The notes under the pieces are model-generated. The model saw only the letters and a program-made list of their open reading frames with translations. It had not been told where the DNA came from and did no database searches. From the NCBI GenBank assembly GCA_963722255.1, contig CAVRJO010000001.1, positions 224,001 through 288,000 on the forward strand: a stretch of DNA of 64,000 nt, given 5' to 3'. Below, piece by piece: positions 4,328 through 28,070 of this stretch. A program made the translations under genes and the position numbers. The stretch comes from Candidatus Babeliales bacterium. GTDB lineage: Bacteria; Babelota; Babeliae; Babelales; JANWKD01. How positions within the stretch are numbered: position 1 is the stretch's first letter; the number at the start of each line of letters is the position of its first letter.

Positions 4328-4603
4328 TTACTGAGCGCGAGCGGCAGCAGCAACTTTTTTAGCTAATCTGCTAACTTTGCGAGAAGCTGTTTTTGGATGG
4401 AGTGTATTTTTGCCCTTAGCACGAGACAATTGAGATTCAGCATCTTTTAATAATGCCTTTAATTGTTCAATATCTGCGCCTTGCTCTAGAGAAACTAAAA
4501 CCTTTTTTACAGAGGTTTTAATTGATGATCTACGAGCTAAATTTTTTTTAGCCTTAAAAATATTTTTTTTTGCTTGTCTTTTAGCTGACTTTGTATTTGC
4601 CAT
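4328..4603 (-). CDS. rpsT: 30S ribosomal protein S20
   Basis: MANTKSAKRQ...LHPKTASRKVSRL. Confidence 0.95.
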   Translation of the reverse strand: MANTKSAKRQAKKNIFKAKKNLARRSSIKTSVKKVLVSLEQGADIEQLKALLKDAESQLSRAKGKNTLHPKTASRKVSRLAKKVAAAARAQ

Positions 4604-4988: not shown

Positions 4989-5031
4989 ATTATGCGCGCT
5001 CATGATAAATTTTACCATGAGCGCGCATAAT
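4989..5031 (-). terminator. Long hairpin downstream of ftsH
   Basis: ATTATGCGCGCTCATG / CATGAGCGCGCATAAT perfect 16-bp inverted repeat. Confidence 0.6.
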
Positions 5032-5059: not shown

Positions 5060-7711
5060 TTAGGTAAGTTTAAAATCCTGACGAGGCTCAATACCAAGAA
5101 GTTGATATATTTCACTCGCAAAAAGCGTTTCTTTATCAAAAAGATGATTTGCCAAAGTATCCAATTTATCTCTATGCTGAATCATCATAGTTTTAACTTT
5201 TTCATAGGCATTGGCCAAAAGTTTTTGAACTTCTGCATCAATCCGCTCTGCTGTCTTCTGAGAATAGGTATATTCACCATGTTGTTGCTTATAAACTACC
5301 AATCCAAGCTCCTCAGACATTCCATACGAACAAATCATTTTACGCGCTATATCAGATGCCTTTTCAAAATCATTAGAAGCACCGGTTCCTATTACGTTAA
5401 AGACCAGCTCTTCAGCAACACGGCCTCCTAAGCAAACCATAATCACTGCAAACATTTCCTCTTTGGTTTGCGTATACTTTTCTCGTTCAGGCAATGAATG
5501 TGTTACACCCAAAGCTCTTCCTCTAGGAATAATGGTCACCTTATGAAGCGGATCACTGAGATCAGGAAGCAAAAGTCGTACCAAAGCATGCCCAGATTCA
5601 TGAAATGCCGTAATTTTACGCTCTTCTTCTGAAAGCACTATAGTCTTCAACTCTTTGCCCAACATGATCTTATCGCGCGCTTCTTCAAAATCGTTAATAG
5701 TGACCATAGATTGATCATTATCTCTGGAAGCATGTAAAGCCGATTCATTCACAAGGTTTGCTAAATCAGCTCCTGAAAAGCCCGGTGTTCCACGTGCAAC
5801 CTTCTTTAAATCAACCGAAGGATCTATGATAATATTTTTAGCATGCAGTTCTAAAATTTTCTCACGGCTTTGTAAGTCAGGGTAAGGAATCTCAACCTTT
5901 CTATCAAAACGGCCGGCACGCAAAAGTGCAGGATCAAGAGAATCGGGTCTATTGGTTGCAGCAATAACTATAACCGAGCTCGTTGCTGAATCAAAACCAT
6001 CCATTTCAGTGAGCAGCTGATTGAGCGTCTGGTTACGTTCATCATTGCCACCCCCGTTTTTCCCGGAGCCTCTATGGCTTCCCACTGCATCTATTTCATC
6101 AATAAATATAATACTAGGATTATGCTTTCTTGCCTGGTTGAAGAGATCACGAACACGAGAAGCACCCACACCAACATACATTTCTACAAATTCTGATGCA
6201 CTCACATTGAAAAATGGACAATTAGCTTCCCCTGCAACGGCTTTGGCGAGTAATGTTTTACCATTACCCGGATCACCAATAAGCAAAACACCACGGGTAA
6301 TCTTAGCGCCCAATCGCTTATATTTTTCAGGATTTTTAAGAAATTCTACAATATCTCGTAGCTCTTCTTTGGCTTCTTGCATGCCTGCAACTTGGTCAAA
6401 ATTACATTTAACCTGGGTAGGCATAAACATTTTAACGTTACTTGCACCCTTCACACCTTGTTGAGAATTACTCATGGGATTATTGTACGATTTAAGCATA
6501 GTCTTATGCGCATCTTCAATATCGGCCATCGTGACCTTATCTTGATTTTTTTTAGAAGCATTAATTGCGGCCTTATTCATTAAATTAGCTAAATCAGCTC
6601 CACTATAGCCAGCGGTTTCTTCAGCAATTTTTTTCAAATCCGCTTCCTTGTCAAGCTTAATAGCCTGAGCATGTATCTTTAAAATCTCTTCTCTGCTTTC
6701 AGAATCTGGAAAAGGGACATCAATGCGGCGATCAAATCTACCCGGCCTTACAAGCGCTTTATCAAGAACATCCGGCATATTGGTAGCTGCTAATACAACC
6801 ACAGAAGCTCCATTGGCTGTTTCAAAGCCATCCATTTCAGTTAAAAGTTGATTAAGCGTTTGCTCGCGCTCATCATGCCCGCCTCCAAAGCCACTGCCTC
6901 GTTGACGCCCAATTGCATCTATTTCATCAATAAACACAATGCTCGGTGCATTTTTACGAGCTTGGGCAAAAAGATCACGAACACGTGCAGCACCTACCCC
7001 CACAAATACTTCGATAAAATCCGATCCGGTAATACTAAAAAATGGGCAGTTAGCTTCACCTGCAACGGCCTTAGCAAGCAATGTTTTACCATTACCAGCT
7101 TCACCAACAAGTAATACTCCACGAGGAATTTTTGCCCCTAAACGTTTGTATTTTTCGGGATTTTTAAGAAAATCAACAACATCTTTAAGTTCATTCTTTG
7201 CATCATGAGCCCCGGCCACCGATTTAAAATTTACTTTAATAGCTGAAGGCATAAACATTTTTGCTTTACTTTTACCCATACTAAAAAGAGTACTCCCACC
7301 ACTTGAGCCACGAGACTGGCGGAAAAAGTACCAAACCAGCAAAGGCATAAAAAGGAATGAAAATAGGAGTAAAAGATGCCAAAAATTAAATTGACCTGTT
7401 ACAGGAGCTATAGAAAATTCAACGTCGTGTTGACGCAAGAGCTCTAAATTATTAGGATTTTCCGCTACCACTGTTTCAAAATGAGTATTATCGTTCAGAA
7501 CCCCAAAAACGTCCTGACCATTGATATGTACCGATTTAACCTCGTTTTTTTCAACAGCTTTCAAAAATGCTGAATAGGTCAGACGCTTCACCTGACGGGT
7601 ATAATCGGTTAATTTCGTTAATAATGCTATAGATATTACAAAAAAGATAATTGCGAAAATAAGGTTCTTTGGTCCGCGCACAAAAGGGTTATTCTTTAGT
7701 TTTTGTCTCAT
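5060..7711 (-). CDS. ftsH: ATP-dependent Zn metalloprotease FtsH with tandemly duplicated AAA+ domain
   Basis: Two TM helices, two Walker A ([16 protein letters not shown]), two Walker B (IDEID), two SRH ([14 protein letters not shown]), M41 HESGH; probable ATG at 7711. Confidence 0.95.
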
Positions 7712-7972
7712 ACTGATACCTATCGTGTTATAATAATAAACCAATGTTTCTAATAAATAATGCAAGCAGGACTTTATACATAAAATATTTACGGATATAC
7801 ATCCCGCGCATATATTCTAATTGTACTATAAAATTTAAAAAATGGAAAGTTATTCTTGATTATAGTCAAATATATCCTTTGTGTCGATGTTTTATGAAAC
7901 GAAATCCCTTGCAACTCCATTAAATGCTCGTTACATCATAATCTAAAATCGATTTTTAAAAAAGTTGATTTA

Positions 7973-9247
7973 TCAACAACTTGACCATGCAGGATAAGAA
8001 CACCGATGCTTTTCATCAGTTAGAAATGTTTCTTCTTTGGTAATCATATTATAGAGAGCAATTCTACATGATTTTCCCTGCTCAATAGAATAGACTAAAT
8101 AGTTACCACAGGGCGACCAACAACATTCATCCTTATTGCCGGGAGTAAAGGTTATTTGTTGATCTTCTTTTTTTGCTAAATCATACCCAAATATCTGAAT
8201 TGTTGTACCAACTAATCGATGATAAGCAACTTTACCATTTTTTTCTGAAAAATTTGGAGCAGCCCCTGGGGTTATTTGTTCTAACTTATTGCTTTCATCA
8301 TGCCAATAATAAACATACGGAACTCCTTTTTCAGCATCTGAACAAAAAATAATATCGCCATTATCACGTACATTTGGCGATATATTATTTCCATCATTGT
8401 GCGTTTTTCTTTCAATAACTTTCTTTTTGTTTTTTTTATCAATAAAGCAACGATAGAGCTGGCTTGTTCCTTGATGCGTTGCACAATAAACGACATTTTG
8501 CCCATTGCTTGAAAATGATGGAAGACTCGTTATACCATTAACATTTGATACAATCTTTTTCTTGCCCTGCATATTTGTTGACATAAGCCGAACATTTGAG
8601 GGAGTCACTTCAGAAAAAAGCAGTAAAGGATTTTTTGAACTTTTATTCCAACGAGGCGCTAATAGTTTACCTCCTTTTACCAGGCAATAAGCATCATCGG
8701 CAAAGGGAGTTTGAATATATAGATCAGATCCCTTATGAGAGCCTTCAATTTTTTCACAACAATAGGCAATCTTAGAAGAAAATATCCCTTCTTGTCCTGT
8801 TAAAAGCTTCCATAAAGCATCAGCCAACAGATGCCCATTTTTACCTATATTTGAAAGATCAAGGTGCATTCGTTTGCCACAATACATCTGAGCTTGCATA
8901 GAATCATAGACACGCCATTCAAGCGTATCATTCGATTTCATCTGTAAAAATACCACCATCATATACCCTTCTTGTGCTAAATTTTTTAGAGCCGATTTTG
9001 AAGGAACTTTATGAAATTTTCTTAAAAGACAGTCAAAGCCACTTTTTTTTTGTTTTGAACATGATAAATCATTAAACGCAACTGACACAAAATCATCCAA
9101 TGATTCAGGAAAATCAATTAACCCAAAAAGCAACTTCATCTTTTCTTGTTGTTGATTTTCAAGCTGAACGACAACATCGGTTGTTACATTGGAGGTATAA
9201 ACCGGTATCACTAGATTAAAAAAAAGAAAAAATAAAAGTTTTTTCAT
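7973..9247 (-). CDS. tolB: TolB-like periplasmic beta-propeller protein
   Basis: Signal peptide, GIFSSKIAY, PD40-like repeats (PRWN, PSFSSNG, WSPCGNYLVY, YPAWS); last gene of a tolQRA cluster. Confidence 0.8.
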   Translation of the reverse strand: MKKLLFFLFFNLVIPVYTSNVTTDVVVQLENQQQEKMKLLFGLIDFPESLDDFVSVAFNDLSCSKQKKSGFDCLLRKFHKVPSKSALKNLAQEGYMMVVFLQMKSNDTLEWRVYDSMQAQMYCGKRMHLDLSNIGKNGHLLADALWKLLTGQEGIFSSKIAYCCEKIEGSHKGSDLYIQTPFADDAYCLVKGGKLLAPRWNKSSKNPLLLFSEVTPSNVRLMSTNMQGKKKIVSNVNGITSLPSFSSNGQNVVYCATHQGTSQLYRCFIDKKNKKKVIERKTHNDGNNISPNVRDNGDIIFCSDAEKGVPYVYYWHDESNKLEQITPGAAPNFSEKNGKVAYHRLVGTTIQIFGYDLAKKEDQQITFTPGNKDECCWSPCGNYLVYSIEQGKSCRIALYNMITKEETFLTDEKHRCSYPAWSSC

Positions 9248-9260
9248 GAATACCCATCTC

Positions 9261-10088
9261 TTAAAAGATTATTGATAACTCTTTTTCTACCCATTGTTTG
9301 GGAAAATCATAGGTTAATAAAAAATTGCGTGCACTAATATCAAGCGCAATAGCATTAGATGATTTTTCCATACTAATATCTCGCTTGCCATCTTTGTGTA
9401 CAATCACACGAAATTCACAAACGGCAGTATCAGGTATATTGGTAGGTCTTTTCCATTTTTTTACTATATCTTTTTTTAAAATATCTTGCATCACAAAAAG
9501 TTCTCGTTCATCATTACCGATAATAACGGTTTCTTGTTTTGGTTGTTGCTGTTCAGCCGTAGCTGTTGTAGAAACATCATGAGTTGGGCTTGCCTTTTCA
9601 CAAATTTTAGGTTGAACCGATTTTTCAATCTTTTGCGCGATCGGCTTTTCTTGCTTGGCAGGCGGTAATTTTTTTTGTGTACTATTTTTTTTGACTGGAG
9701 GTACAACGGCCTTTTTCTTGGAAATCGTCGCACTATCCTTTTTTCTTTGCATTATGGTACTATTTTTTTTAGCAGGCAATGGCTTGATCTGTTTTGGGAC
9801 AGCTTTTTTTTCTTCCCTTACGGATTTTTGAACTATATCTTTTTTTAAAGTTGGAGCATTGTGTAACTTTTGTTGCGGTGGCACTGCCTTGAGAAAAGGT
9901 ACAAACGACACTGAAGCATTATTGCTTTGTGTATTTACCACCACCGAAACTCGTGATTGTGTTAGGATAAAAAAAAGCACAAGAATAGTTATATGCGCAA
10001 GAAGACAACATAACAATAGTTTGGAAAAAAAAGTAACTTTTTTAGACAGCTTTACCGCCACTAGGTTTTTCAGTTGCAATTGCAACAT
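9261..10088 (-). CDS. tolA: TolA/TonB-like energy transducer
   Basis: N-terminal TM with His, Lys/Pro-rich linker, C-terminal W.RP...SS...LD.SA domain; lies between tolR and tolB. Confidence 0.7.
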   Translation of the reverse strand: MLQLQLKNLVAVKLSKKVTFFSKLLLCCLLAHITILVLFFILTQSRVSVVVNTQSNNASVSFVPFLKAVPPQQKLHNAPTLKKDIVQKSVREEKKAVPKQIKPLPAKKNSTIMQRKKDSATISKKKAVVPPVKKNSTQKKLPPAKQEKPIAQKIEKSVQPKICEKASPTHDVSTTATAEQQQPKQETVIIGNDERELFVMQDILKKDIVKKWKRPTNIPDTAVCEFRVIVHKDGKRDISMEKSSNAIALDISARNFLLTYDFPKQWVEKELSIIF

Positions 10089-10482
10089 CCTTTACACCTC
10101 CAACGACTTTAATACAATCAATAACACTGGTTAGACACCCCGCACAGGACTGGCTATCAGGCTTTATCCAAACTCTCGTTTTTTCTTTATTTGGCATCTG
10201 AGCCAATTTTTGTTGTATCTCAGATCCTAACATTTCTAAGGTCACCATTTTGTTATTACAATAAATAGTATCTTTTTTATCAATTGTTACAACTAATTCT
10301 TGTTGATCCTTTCCACCTTCTTGCGCCTGCCCTTTAGGCAGATCTATTTTTATTGAATTTTGAATCATTGGTGTTGTAACCATAAAAATTATCAGCAGTG
10401 TTAAAGCAGTATCAATTAATGGCGTTAACGTAATTTCCGGCTGAGAAATTGCTCTTCTTTTTCTTCTTTGTAATCCTCGCAT
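10042..10482 (-). CDS. tolR: TolR/ExbD
   Basis: EITLTPLIDTALTLLIIFMVTTP...IDLPK. Confidence 0.85.
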   Translation of the reverse strand: MRGLQRRKRRAISQPEITLTPLIDTALTLLIIFMVTTPMIQNSIKIDLPKGQAQEGGKDQQELVVTIDKKDTIYCNNKMVTLEMLGSEIQQKLAQMPNKEKTRVWIKPDSQSCAGCLTSVIDCIKVVGGVKDVAIATEKPSGGKAV

Positions 10483-10492
10483 AATCAAATCC

Positions 10493-11179
10493 TTATCGTG
10501 CAAAAAGTTTTTGAACTATGAAGATAAACTTATCTGCAAGAATAAACAGTTGCCGCTCAATAACTCGAATTTCACTAGTTAAATAATGGTACATCACCAA
10601 TGCAGGAATTGCCACTAAAAGGCCTGCAAGCGTAGTAATTAATGCTTCAGCAATACCCGGAGCAACCGTCGTTATATCGGCTGATTGTTTTTCACTTATT
10701 CTAATAAAAGCATGAACCAATCCCCAAACAGTACCAAAAAGACCCAACAAGGGAGAAACCGATGCGCTGGTAAAAAGGAAAGGTAAATAGGATTCTTCAG
10801 TCTGCAAAATATCATCAACACTCTGGTCTATTTGTTGTTGCAATGAATTTATTTCTCGTTCATTTAATGAATTTTTATTTGGATCAATCTCAAGATACAT
10901 TTTTAAAGAACCAAAATTTTTGCGCAAAAAATAACCAGGCAATGTATCATTGAATGCTAATGCTAAACTACGTAATTCCTCAAATGTAGTTATTGAAGAC
11001 AAACGTTTAGCTAAAGTTTTTAATTGATTTTTTTTTATTCTCAGAAGAATAACTTTATACAAAAATATCGTCCAACATATAATTGAAAGACCCAAGAGTA
11101 TGAGCAAAACCAATTTCGTTACATAATCCGATTGTGAAACTAACATCCACAATGAATTACCATGCATTGCATATTCCAT
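10493..11179 (-). CDS. tolQ: TolQ/ExbB proton channel
   Basis: SPLLGLFGTVWG...VAPGIAEALITTLAGLLVAIPA. Confidence 0.88.
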   Translation of the reverse strand: MEYAMHGNSLWMLVSQSDYVTKLVLLILLGLSIICWTIFLYKVILLRIKKNQLKTLAKRLSSITTFEELRSLALAFNDTLPGYFLRKNFGSLKMYLEIDPNKNSLNEREINSLQQQIDQSVDDILQTEESYLPFLFTSASVSPLLGLFGTVWGLVHAFIRISEKQSADITTVAPGIAEALITTLAGLLVAIPALVMYHYLTSEIRVIERQLFILADKFIFIVQKLFAR

Positions 11180-25601: not shown

Positions 25602-28070
25602 ATGAACAAAGAAATTCAAGCTTCACACAAAGAATATTCGACGCACTATTTGCCGCTTTTGCCGCTCAAAAATGTAATTATTCTTCCAAAAAGTATTTTA
25701 CCTATAATTGTTGGCAGACCTTCTTCAATCCAGGCCGTTGAATTTGCGTTAAAAGACGATAAATCTATTTTTATATCAACGCAAAAAAATGCAGCTACAG
25801 AAAACCCGAACGAAGATGATATTTTTCAGGTTGGCACAAAAGCTACAATTTTACAGGTTATGCGCATGCCAAATGGTTCACTCAAAATTCTTGTTGAAGG
25901 GATTTGTAGAGCGCGCATCTTACAGGCCGACCATACACATGGGTTTATTGGTGTGACTATTGTTGATATGCCAACGACCCATTTAGAAAAAAGTATAGAA
26001 ATCGAGGCACTATGGCGCCACTTAAAAGAACTCTATGAAGATTATACTAAACATAATGAAAAAGTACCTGCTGATCTAATGTCCATCGCAAAATCAGTAG
26101 AAGATATGGATGCTATTGCTGATACGATTGCCGTGCATATAAACCTATCTTTTGATGAACGTCAAGCAATGCTTGAAACACCTGATTTAAAAGAGCGACT
26201 CATCAAACTCAGCGCACTCTTAAAAAAAGAGATCGATATTCTACAAACGGAGCAGCGTATTAAAGGCAGGATTCAAACACAAGTTGAAAAAAGCCAACGC
26301 GAATATTATCTTACTGAACAATTGAAAGCAATTCACAAAGAACTTGGCCGAGAAGATCAAGGTGCCGAGATAGTACAACTGCGCAATAAAGCAAAAAATC
26401 TTGGCCTTTCTGAAGAAGCTTTTGAAAAGGTTGAAAAAGAGTTTAAACGATTAGAACAGATGCCTCCTTTATCATCTGAAGCTGCCGTTTCGCGCAATTA
26501 TATCGATTGGATTTTATCATTACCTTGGAAAAAACAAAGCAAAGACTCAATTAGTCTTGAACAAGCCGAAAAAATTCTTAATAAGCAGCATGCCGGTCTT
26601 TCTAAGCCTAAGGAACGAATCATTGAATTTATTGCCGCTAAAAAGTTTTCAAAATCTATTGAACGTTCGCCTATTATTTGTCTCGTAGGCCCTCCGGGCG
26701 TGGGAAAAACATCATTGGCATCCTCAATTGCTAAAAGCCTCGGTCGAGAGTTTGTTCGAATTTCATTGGGTGGCATTCGTGATGAAGCAGAAATTCGTGG
26801 CCACCGAAGAACCTATATTGGTGCACTTCCCGGCAAGATCATACAAGGCATGAAAAAAGCAAAAACATTGAATCCTCTTATTTTGCTTGATGAAATAGAT
26901 AAAATGGCACGTGATATGCATGGCGATCCAGCATCAGCTCTTCTTGAAGTGTTAGATCCGGAACAAAACAGAACATTCACCGATCATTTTCTTGATATGG
27001 AATATGATCTTTCAAAAGTTATGTTTCTTGCAACGGCTAATATGATTGAAGGTATTCCATACCCACTTTTTGATCGCATGGAAATCATTACCCTAGCAGG
27101 CTATACTGAAGATGAAAAAAGAGAGATTGCTCGTAATTTCCTTATTCCTAAAGGGCTTAAAGAATATCAGCTCACTAAAAAACAGTTTCATATAACTGAT
27201 GTAACCTTACATAAAGTTATCAGCGAATACACCAAAGAGGCTGGCGTTCGACAGCTTGAACGCACCTTAACAAAATTAATGCGTAAGACCATTCAACTAC
27301 TTTTAAAAGATCATACTATAACATCCGTTGTAGTTACTGATGAACTCTTAAAAGAATGGCTCGGGCATCCAAAGTTTAAAAAAACAACACTTGATCTACT
27401 CAAAGAACGTGTTGGCATCGTTACAGGACTCGCATGGACTGAAGTTGGCGGCGACGTTTTAGAGATTGAAACATCGGTTCTTCCTGGTAAAGGAGGCTTA
27501 ACGCTTACTGGCCAACTTGGTGAAGTTATGCAAGAATCAGCATACGCTGCGTTGAGCTATATTCGTTCGCGTGCTTCTGAACTTGGACTTAAAGATTCAT
27601 TCTATTCATCCAAAGATTTGCATATTCATATACCTGAAGGCGCAACTCCAAAGGATGGCCCTTCTGCTGGTATTACCATGTGCGTTTCATTGGTTTCAGC
27701 ACTCACCAAAAATCCTACACGCCCTGACGTTGCCATGACGGGTGAAATTACCCTACGTGGACGTGTACTTTCTGTTGGTGGACTTAAGGAAAAGCTTCTT
27801 GCAGCTCAACAACATAATTTAACAACCGTAATTGTACCTAGAGAAAATCGCGATGATATTGAAGAGATCACCAAAGATACTCCATTGAATCTCAAAATCA
27901 TCTTTGTTGATAACATCGATGAAGTTCTTGTTCATGCATTGCAAAAAAATCCTTTTGAAAAAGCCAAAGAAGCTAAAAAGAATGGTAAAAATGGCAAGAA
28001 TAGTAAAAAGGAAGCTTCAACTTCAAAAAGTTCAAAAACGAAATCAAACGTTAAAGCTAAGAAGAAATAA
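25602..28070 (+). CDS. lon: ATP-dependent protease Lon
   Basis: LPLLPL N-domain, [24 protein letters not shown] catalytic Ser, GGLKEK catalytic Lys. Confidence 0.98.

Follow-up and report, generated by a model that had tools for sequence, protein, structure and literature searches.

Does the ftsH gene of this Babeliales genome encode a membrane protease with two working AAA motors in one chain and, if so, how might the two be arranged and what might the second contribute? The gene occupies positions 5060..7711 (minus strand) of the window, that is, of the whole 64,000-nucleotide stretch that was analysed. It is a single open frame of 883 aa with its ATG at 7711, laid out as TM-periplasmic-TM-AAA(D1)-AAA(D2)-M41. 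The membrane anchor (7322..7675, minus strand) consists of a helix from about residue 13, a periplasmic FtsH_ext domain (residues 18-104) and a helix from about residue 108. Pfam PF06480 matches at 18-104, hydropathy windows stand at 13 and 108, and the structural model places helices at 14-39 and 110-135. The membrane-proximal module D1 (residues 151-410; 6482..7261, minus strand) is joined to the protease-proximal module D2 (residues 427-685; 5657..6433, minus strand) by a linker of 16 residues (411-426; 6434..6481, minus strand), which is poorly conserved in sequence, narrow in length range and predicted to be disordered. One copy of the M41 zinc-protease domain follows (residues 692-871; 5099..5638, minus strand), with H704, E705, H708, E767 and D781, the last of which is taken, by analogy with FtsH structures, to be the third zinc ligand.

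Corresponding motifs of the two modules are separated by a period of 276 aa. KMFMP occurs at 151 and 427, Walker A reads GEAGNGKT at 203 in D1 and GDPGNGKT at 479 in D2, and the pore loop is FVG at 236 and YVG at 512, respectively. IDEID is found at 261 and 537, ATN at 309 and 585, and the arginine fingers lie in RPGRFDR at 322 (D1) and RAGRFDR at 598 (D2); HESGH occurs at 704 in M41. D1 thus presents Walker A K209, pore-1 F236, Walker B D262/E263, the R271-N287 pair, sensor-1 N311 and arginine fingers R322/R325, together with a canonical pore-2 loop ([12 protein letters not shown] 294-296). It lacks the otherwise conserved Arg after sensor-1 (M312 instead) and the Glu of the lid (K380 instead). 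The equivalent D2 residues are K485, Y512, D538/E539, the R547-N564 pair, DGF 571-573, N587, R588 and R598/R601; the pore-2 loop of D2 is relaxed and its lid is ancestral. Over the 883-aa ORF Pfam reports AAA and AAA_lid_3 twice each, and FtsH_ext and Peptidase_M41 (692-871) once each. The original prediction of two complete tandem AAA modules before one M41 protease is therefore borne out by Pfam, by the motif positions and by the alignment of homologues described below, every motif that it had listed being in its place in both modules and a single HESGH protease lying downstream.

The protein shares with canonical FtsH and the m-AAA and i-AAA proteases (TIGR01241, PF01434 M41; PDB 7vhp, 3kds, 7tdo, 6nyy, 6az0) the two membrane helices with a periplasmic domain, an FtsH-type AAA of the classic clade with FVG pore loop, DGF and second region of homology, and a C-terminal HExxH zinc protease of the M41 family in the same chain. 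However, the described enzymes have one AAA per chain, as stated in the consulted parts of two reviews (PMC7226402, PMC7568338), whereas here there are two, both intact. The protein is therefore filed as a variant of FtsH and not as a plain member. In the same parts of these reviews FtsH is presented as having a single ring, double rings being confined to p97, NSF and ClpA/B/C (PMC7226402, PMC7568338), in agreement with the two statements on which the original prediction had built its contrast: that canonical FtsH has one AAA ring and that double rings typify p97, NSF, ClpA and ClpB. A two-module FtsH was absent among the best 60 solved-structure matches.

Tandem classic-clade modules of the same period are also found in type II ATPases such as p97/Cdc48/VAT and NVL. 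Unlike p97/Cdc48, the protein has no p97-type N domain, is anchored in the membrane and carries its protease fused in the same chain. Against the NCBIfam FtsH model TIGR01241 it reaches 1181 bits over two stretches (cut-off 600), a value inflated by the repeat, and against the CDC48-family model TIGR01243 it reaches 463 bits, below the cut-off of 803. The CDC48 N-domain family is missing from the Pfam matches of the 883-aa protein. Both modules derive from FtsH: they are 58-61% identical to its ATPase domains, compared with about 38% for p97. On these sequence relationships, the two-module protein is not a member of the CDC48 family.

A tandem repeat in a single assembly may be an artefact, or a recent duplication without function. 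D1 and D2 are 63% identical (173/273 aligned residues), with codon-position identities of 0.70, 0.84 and 0.43 at first, second and third positions. The same codon is used at 83 of the 169 identical D1/D2 residues, and the longest exact DNA word in common is 21 nt. The diverged third positions and the lack of a long exact DNA word therefore indicate an old duplication, neither a collapsed nor a doubled read. What speaks for an artefact is that other genes of the same assembly (clpB and a second lon) contain frame breaks and that the double gene is broken in three relatives (G049, G078 and G176). Yet third-position identity of 0.43, the absence of any common word longer than 21 nt, purifying selection, and a layout common to 94 of the 120 homologues listed and to at least 49 of 261 phylum genomes already refute this explanation, the probability of which we regard as virtually negligible. 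The earlier claim that this is not a collapsed-read artefact is thereby upheld. The ftsH frame is whole despite the breaks elsewhere. The clpB-like gene (G000:C1:891836-894409) and the second lon-like gene (C2:421143-422754) fall into several reading frames each, which may be assembly indels or pseudogenes. As to sequence data spanning the D1-D2 junction, a 151-nt contig of public run X2 corresponds to 6408-6558, across the linker, with zero mismatches; at a depth of 2 it is weak taken alone, and the contigs of runs X1 and X2 cover short pieces only. The public runs listed for the gene included no RNA run.

The integrity of the two motors was assessed on an alignment of 91 full-length homologues, 4 of the first 95 matches being excluded (shorter, truncated or four-module). 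In both modules the Walker A K/T, the Walker B DE, the sensor-1 N, both arginine fingers, the pore-1 aromatic residue and DGF are kept in 91/91 proteins, and M41 H704, E705, H708, E767 and D781 are likewise invariant in 91/91. In AFG3L2 the R416-N432 pair is reported to be needed for degradation (preprint, 10.1101/551085). Mapped by spacing to the DGF phenylalanine, not through an AFG3L2 alignment, this pair corresponds to R271/N287 in D1 and R547/N564 in D2, all invariant. Between close relatives, dN/dS ranged from 0.016 to 0.066 for D1 (9/9 pairs) and from 0.012 to 0.098 for D2 (8/9 pairs computable), rough values since synonymous sites are near saturation. These ratios indicate purifying selection on both modules. 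Column identity is highest in the protein for the D1 large subdomain (0.80), followed by D2 (0.71), M41 (0.55) and the linker (0.21). The N379-P431 span, however variable in sequence at its linker, measures 48-56 aa in 91/91 homologues.

The architecture is common yet patchy in the phylum. A search with the D1-D2 junction gave the full anchor-AAA-AAA-M41 layout in 94 of the 120 proteins listed, a count that includes the query itself and P0098, a protein of a separate branch. A taxon is given in the source names of 7 of the 94, all of them Babeliales, Babeliaceae or Dependentiae, and on this ground the organism is likely a member of Babeliales (Dependentiae); Dependentiae/TM6 are intracellular parasites of protists according to the consulted part of PMC6561590, where a term search returned no mention of FtsH. 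At least 49 of 261 phylum genomes have one match spanning both modules, among the matches listed and with up to 3 candidates scored per genome; a match at E 1e-105 or better was present in 246/261. Two further genomes (G049, G079) carry the double form split by stops or contig ends. Among the matches listed, the double form occurs in 5/5 genomes of family f1, 9/10 of f11, 2/2 of f17 and 6/8 of f5, in 2/4 of f2, 19/41 of f3, 1/8 of f14 and 5/80 of f19, and in none of the remaining 13 families.

Double and single FtsH of these relatives occupy the same site, a tolB-ftsH-rpsT locus. Irrespective of gene order, and among loci with 4 kb or more of upstream sequence, tolB accompanies 17/22 double and 23/26 single ftsH genes; among those with 4 kb or more of downstream sequence, rpsT accompanies 21/23 double and 30/30 single genes. 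In the window, the conserved upstream neighbour is a tolQ-tolR-tolA-like-tolB cluster (7973..11179, minus strand), in which the TolQ, TolR and TolB matches are below curated cut-offs and the tolA-like ORF has no NCBIfam match. The conserved downstream neighbour is rpsT (ribosomal protein S20; 4328..4603, minus strand). A sigma-70-like promoter match, TCGACA-17-TATAAT (7859..7887, minus strand; 11/12), lies about 150 nt upstream of the ATG; it is a consensus match only, and a weak one, since the scan gave 17 sites against 11.1 ± 3.4 in shuffles. Just 3′ of the ftsH stop, at window 4989-5030, visual inspection shows an inverted repeat that is missing from the terminator scan output.

In 13 double-form genomes for which all candidates were scored, no second match starting in the N-terminal anchor was found; therefore the double gene replaces the ordinary ftsH. 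In the present genome both M41 matches are two-module genes, and there is no one-module FtsH. The two-module gene is likely the housekeeping FtsH of the cell.

The second of these matches is a two-module paralogue of 759 aa (G000:C1:208967-211246; L031:5967-8246, minus strand), about 18 kb from ftsH and 70% identical to it. One N-terminal hydrophobic stretch takes the place of the full anchor; in its D1 the GGG pore-2 loop is missing and the arginine-finger region is shortened, and the protein groups with D1 and D2 of the Babeliales double FtsH. A divergent AAA-M41 protein of 981 aa (L040:3410-6355; G000:C1:28409-31354) has a long acidic N-terminal region and an HEIAH motif, and similar frames of 800-990 codons occur in many relatives. 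Elsewhere in the phylum, G036 encodes a protein of 876 aa (L033:10479-13109) in which a degenerate Lon-type ATPase-like region, recognized by eye, precedes the FtsH AAA-M41 part, with a soluble-looking AAA-AAA-M41 protein of 791 aa 3 kb away. Further FtsH-derived multi-module proteins of the phylum (L034-L039, L153) comprise AAA-AAA proteins that lack a protease (G015, G008, G021 and G038), a four-AAA protein of 1194 aa (G025) and, clustered in G095, three M41 paralogues. For a 1194-codon frame of G016 a three-module protein was considered and rejected, the frame being a normal 606-aa FtsH plus a 520-aa paralogue.

The two modules have diverged in consistent ways. Pore-1 is Phe in 90/91 D1s, which also keep the canonical pore-2 loop GGG[HN]DEREQ, and Tyr in 77/91 D2s, in which pore-2 is relaxed. 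The Arg after sensor-1 and the Glu of the lid occur together in 43/45 single FtsH proteins of the phylum, 17/17 outgroups and 43/44 D2s but in 0/44 D1s. In half-module trees 41/41 single FtsH proteins have a D1 as the closest neighbour of their N-half and a D2 as that of their C-half. The C-halves of D1 form one clade (44/44, support 0.988), as do the N-halves of D2 (43/44, 0.83). The D2 N-half of G062 groups with D1 and single sequences. The outer halves (D1 N-half and D2 C-half) have thus remained ancestral; the inner halves, opposed to one another if the modules stack, changed a single time. Of the ancestral module, the half that grips substrate would live on in D1 and the half that faces the protease in D2.

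The phylogeny of D1 versus D2 proposed as a check in the original prediction gave separate clades for 13 representative doubles, D1s with an SH-aLRT of 98 and D2s with 97. Pairing of D1 with D2 within lineages was rejected in 3/3 tests (p-AU 0.041, 0.035 and 0.046), these rejections of independent duplications being marginal (LG+G4, quick search). A duplication that arose once in Babeliales is the best reading of these trees. Continuing gene conversion between the two modules is unsupported overall, identity being 0.613 within and 0.605 between proteins, although the D2 N-half of G062 groups as noted above. In a tree of the N-terminal region and M41, doubles are scattered among singles, with 10 changes. 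A tree of the outer parts has 6 changes, the starred branches forcing at least 3, and monophyly of all doubles is not rejected on it (p-AU 0.436). Two explanations of the patchy spread stand, one gain followed by repeated collapse and one gain followed by transfer at the locus. A strict diagnostic-residue test for collapse gave 2 usable columns, both ancestral in singles, and a nearest-neighbour check of 6 nested singles found none that pointed to its own double relatives.

We then considered how D1 and D2 are placed relative to each other. A single alignment stretch covers residues 158-670 of the protein and 199-707 of p97, and the module period is equal (513 vs 509 residues); therefore the spacing fits a stacked type II ATPase. 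AlphaFold2 models reached a mean pLDDT of 80 for the full protein and 83 for D1-D2 alone, with a pTM of 0.51 for both, and the linker falls below a pLDDT of 50 at 411-423. The D1-D2 model, at this pTM of 0.51, superimposes on substrate-engaged p97/Cdc48 chains with TMq values of 0.65-0.69 (rmsd 6.2-7.7 Å, about 550 columns), compared with 0.50-0.58 for other p97 states. The corresponding rmsd is 5.7 Å over 500 residues for NVL, and the D2-M41 part of the model fits substrate-bound AFG3L2 with 2.8 Å over 448 residues. The predicted arrangement, which resembles substrate-engaged p97, favours the order D1 over D2 over protease, with a low inter-domain confidence and a possible echo of p97 in the training data. 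Of the double-ring membrane protease originally predicted, the two rings are thus likely, as judged from module spacing and a low-confidence monomer prediction (pTM only 0.51) that both resemble p97.

D1 and D2 could instead alternate side by side in one six-module ring of three chains, like the A/B-type FtsH hetero-hexamer of plants, with three proteases per ring or two rings sharing six. The disordered linker of 16 residues is long enough in principle to reach such a neighbour, both modules keep their cis and trans faces, and 2, 3 and 6 modules all divide a ring of six. However, natural relatives have 3, 4 or 6 modules per M41 and four does not divide six (P0005 and P0245 have four modules). 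In the solved structures of FtsH-type enzymes the M41 domains are arranged as a ring of six, as described in the consulted part of PMC7226402. Moreover, D1 alone is joined to the membrane anchor and D2 alone to the protease, and both predicted models set D1 over D2 as in p97, not beside it. We consider a mixed ring of this kind unlikely.

For the stacked arrangement, we propose a hexamer in which the D1 ring under the membrane probably engages the substrate and the D2 ring passes it on to the M41 ring, both rings hydrolysing ATP. Three tiers would be stacked, with the D1 ring below the membrane, the D2 ring next and the protease ring at the bottom, and one substrate would be threaded through both ATPase rings. 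After duplication, the ancestral jobs may have been divided between the two copies. D1 would have kept the features of substrate entry, namely the pore-1 Phe and the canonical pore-2 loop, and its lid would have drifted because D1 no longer packs on a protease. D2 would have kept the ancestral coupling of its lid to M41, with its pore-1 changed to Tyr and its pore-2 loop relaxed. By analogy with ClpA, the second ring would likely lengthen the channel that grips the substrate and make unfolding more processive; in that enzyme, the D1 ring serves chiefly to help D2 and contributes processivity, according to the portion of PMC7568338 consulted. The greater unfolding or extraction force that the original prediction had ascribed to a second ring is plausible.

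The ClpA precedent can also be turned against two equal motors. ClpA D2 makes 80-90% of the ATP turnover (same portion of PMC7568338), and in a stacked double ring D1 might be a nucleotide-binding scaffold or auxiliary ring while D2 does the work, the duplication being kept for a split of roles and not for force. In keeping with this, the R/E pair is lost in D1 alone (0/44 keep both), a loss that may lower D1 activity, the D1 lid has diverged as one clade, and most relatives manage with one module at the same locus. But no part of the protein is better conserved than the D1 large subdomain, which ranks ahead of D2 and M41, D1 alone keeps the full pore-2 loop, and its Walker B E263 is invariant in 91/91. 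A stack with one real motor therefore seems to us rather unlikely, and two hydrolysing rings remain our preferred reading.

Multi-module M41 proteases are not confined to the phylum. Among the best 150 representatives of 50%-identity clusters, 18 were multi-module (11 AAM, 6 AAAM and 1 AAAAM), and a search for longer proteins added a six-module M41 protein. Several multi-module groups branch with outgroup FtsH, apart from Babeliales (SH-aLRT 99), and therefore have separate origins; named members of those clusters are Thermoleophilaceae and Lachnospiraceae. The gain of extra modules in FtsH is thus recurrent, and the databases contain undescribed proteases with 2, 3, 4 or 6 AAA modules before one M41, several of which arose separately. 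Separate families are represented by P0122, P0245 and P0309 (6, 4 and 3 modules), P0005 and P0242 (4 and 3), and P0243 and P0263 (3 and 2). The P0198 group of Lachnospiraceae proteins, of about 1600 aa, combines three Walker A motifs with M41 and PF01693. Other FtsH proteins of 1550-1960 aa (P0150, P0152, P0155, P0157-P0160 and others) contain the intein and LAGLIDADG Pfam families PF14890 and PF14528. A junction search of genome contigs returned ordinary FtsH genes, with no multi-module protein in the best 80 loci listed; these were used for outgroups only.

ClpP had no match in this genome, which is 93% complete, and a strong, near-full-domain match was found in 3 of 261 phylum genomes; weak, mostly partial ClpP matches (E 1e-8 or weaker) in 48 other genomes are presumed to be other serine peptidases. 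HslV was found in 0 of the 41 phylum genomes searched. Lon is present in this genome (window 25602-28070), in which FtsH and Lon would carry out ATP-dependent proteolysis. Many phylum genomes carry extra FtsH paralogues. The lack of ClpP and HslV may permit both a stronger FtsH and these additional paralogues. As the cause of the double form, loss of ClpP was rejected: it does not explain which lineages carry two modules because single-module genomes lack ClpP too. The same point weighs against the proposed gain, about four fifths of phylum genomes being without the double form yet likewise without ClpP.

If the stack is real, two ATPase rings would feed a protease chamber as in ClpAP. In ClpA, however, the two rings come from different AAA clades, and the serine protease ClpP is a chain of its own (consulted portion of PMC7568338), whereas here copies of the same clade are fused to a zinc protease at the membrane. 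The most far-reaching interpretation, to which we give slightly less than an even chance, is a three-tier, single-chain membrane protease with two active, specialised AAA rings between the anchor and the M41 ring, standing in for ClpAP-type processive proteolysis where ClpP and HslV were lost. It would belong to a natural series with 1, 2, 3, 4 and 6 motors per protease, which arose on several occasions and in which enzymes with one and with two motors are orthologues sharing a locus.

The original prediction was to count as refuted if the architecture proved already common and characterised. The layout does recur, in at least 49/261 genomes and with separate origins elsewhere, but no characterisation was found. 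No description of a two-module FtsH was found in full-text searches, read as listings and abstract openings, of the literature outside subscription journals, nor by a term search of the FtsH review PMC9020784. The architecture is real, conserved and apparently undescribed in print. New here are the count of at least 49/261 genomes, the common locus, the split into half-modules, and the phylum-wide near-lack of ClpP and lack of HslV (0/41 searched).

Whether FtsH is a weak, force-limited unfoldase is a stated open question (PMC9601784, part consulted), and so is how two rings cooperate. The Babeliales proteins offer matched one- and two-motor orthologues at one locus, with ancestral outer and specialised inner halves. 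Taking out a single period of 276 residues should therefore yield a one-ring control close to the native protein. The contribution of a second ring, be it force, grip, processivity or reach from the membrane, would thereby become addressable in one scaffold.
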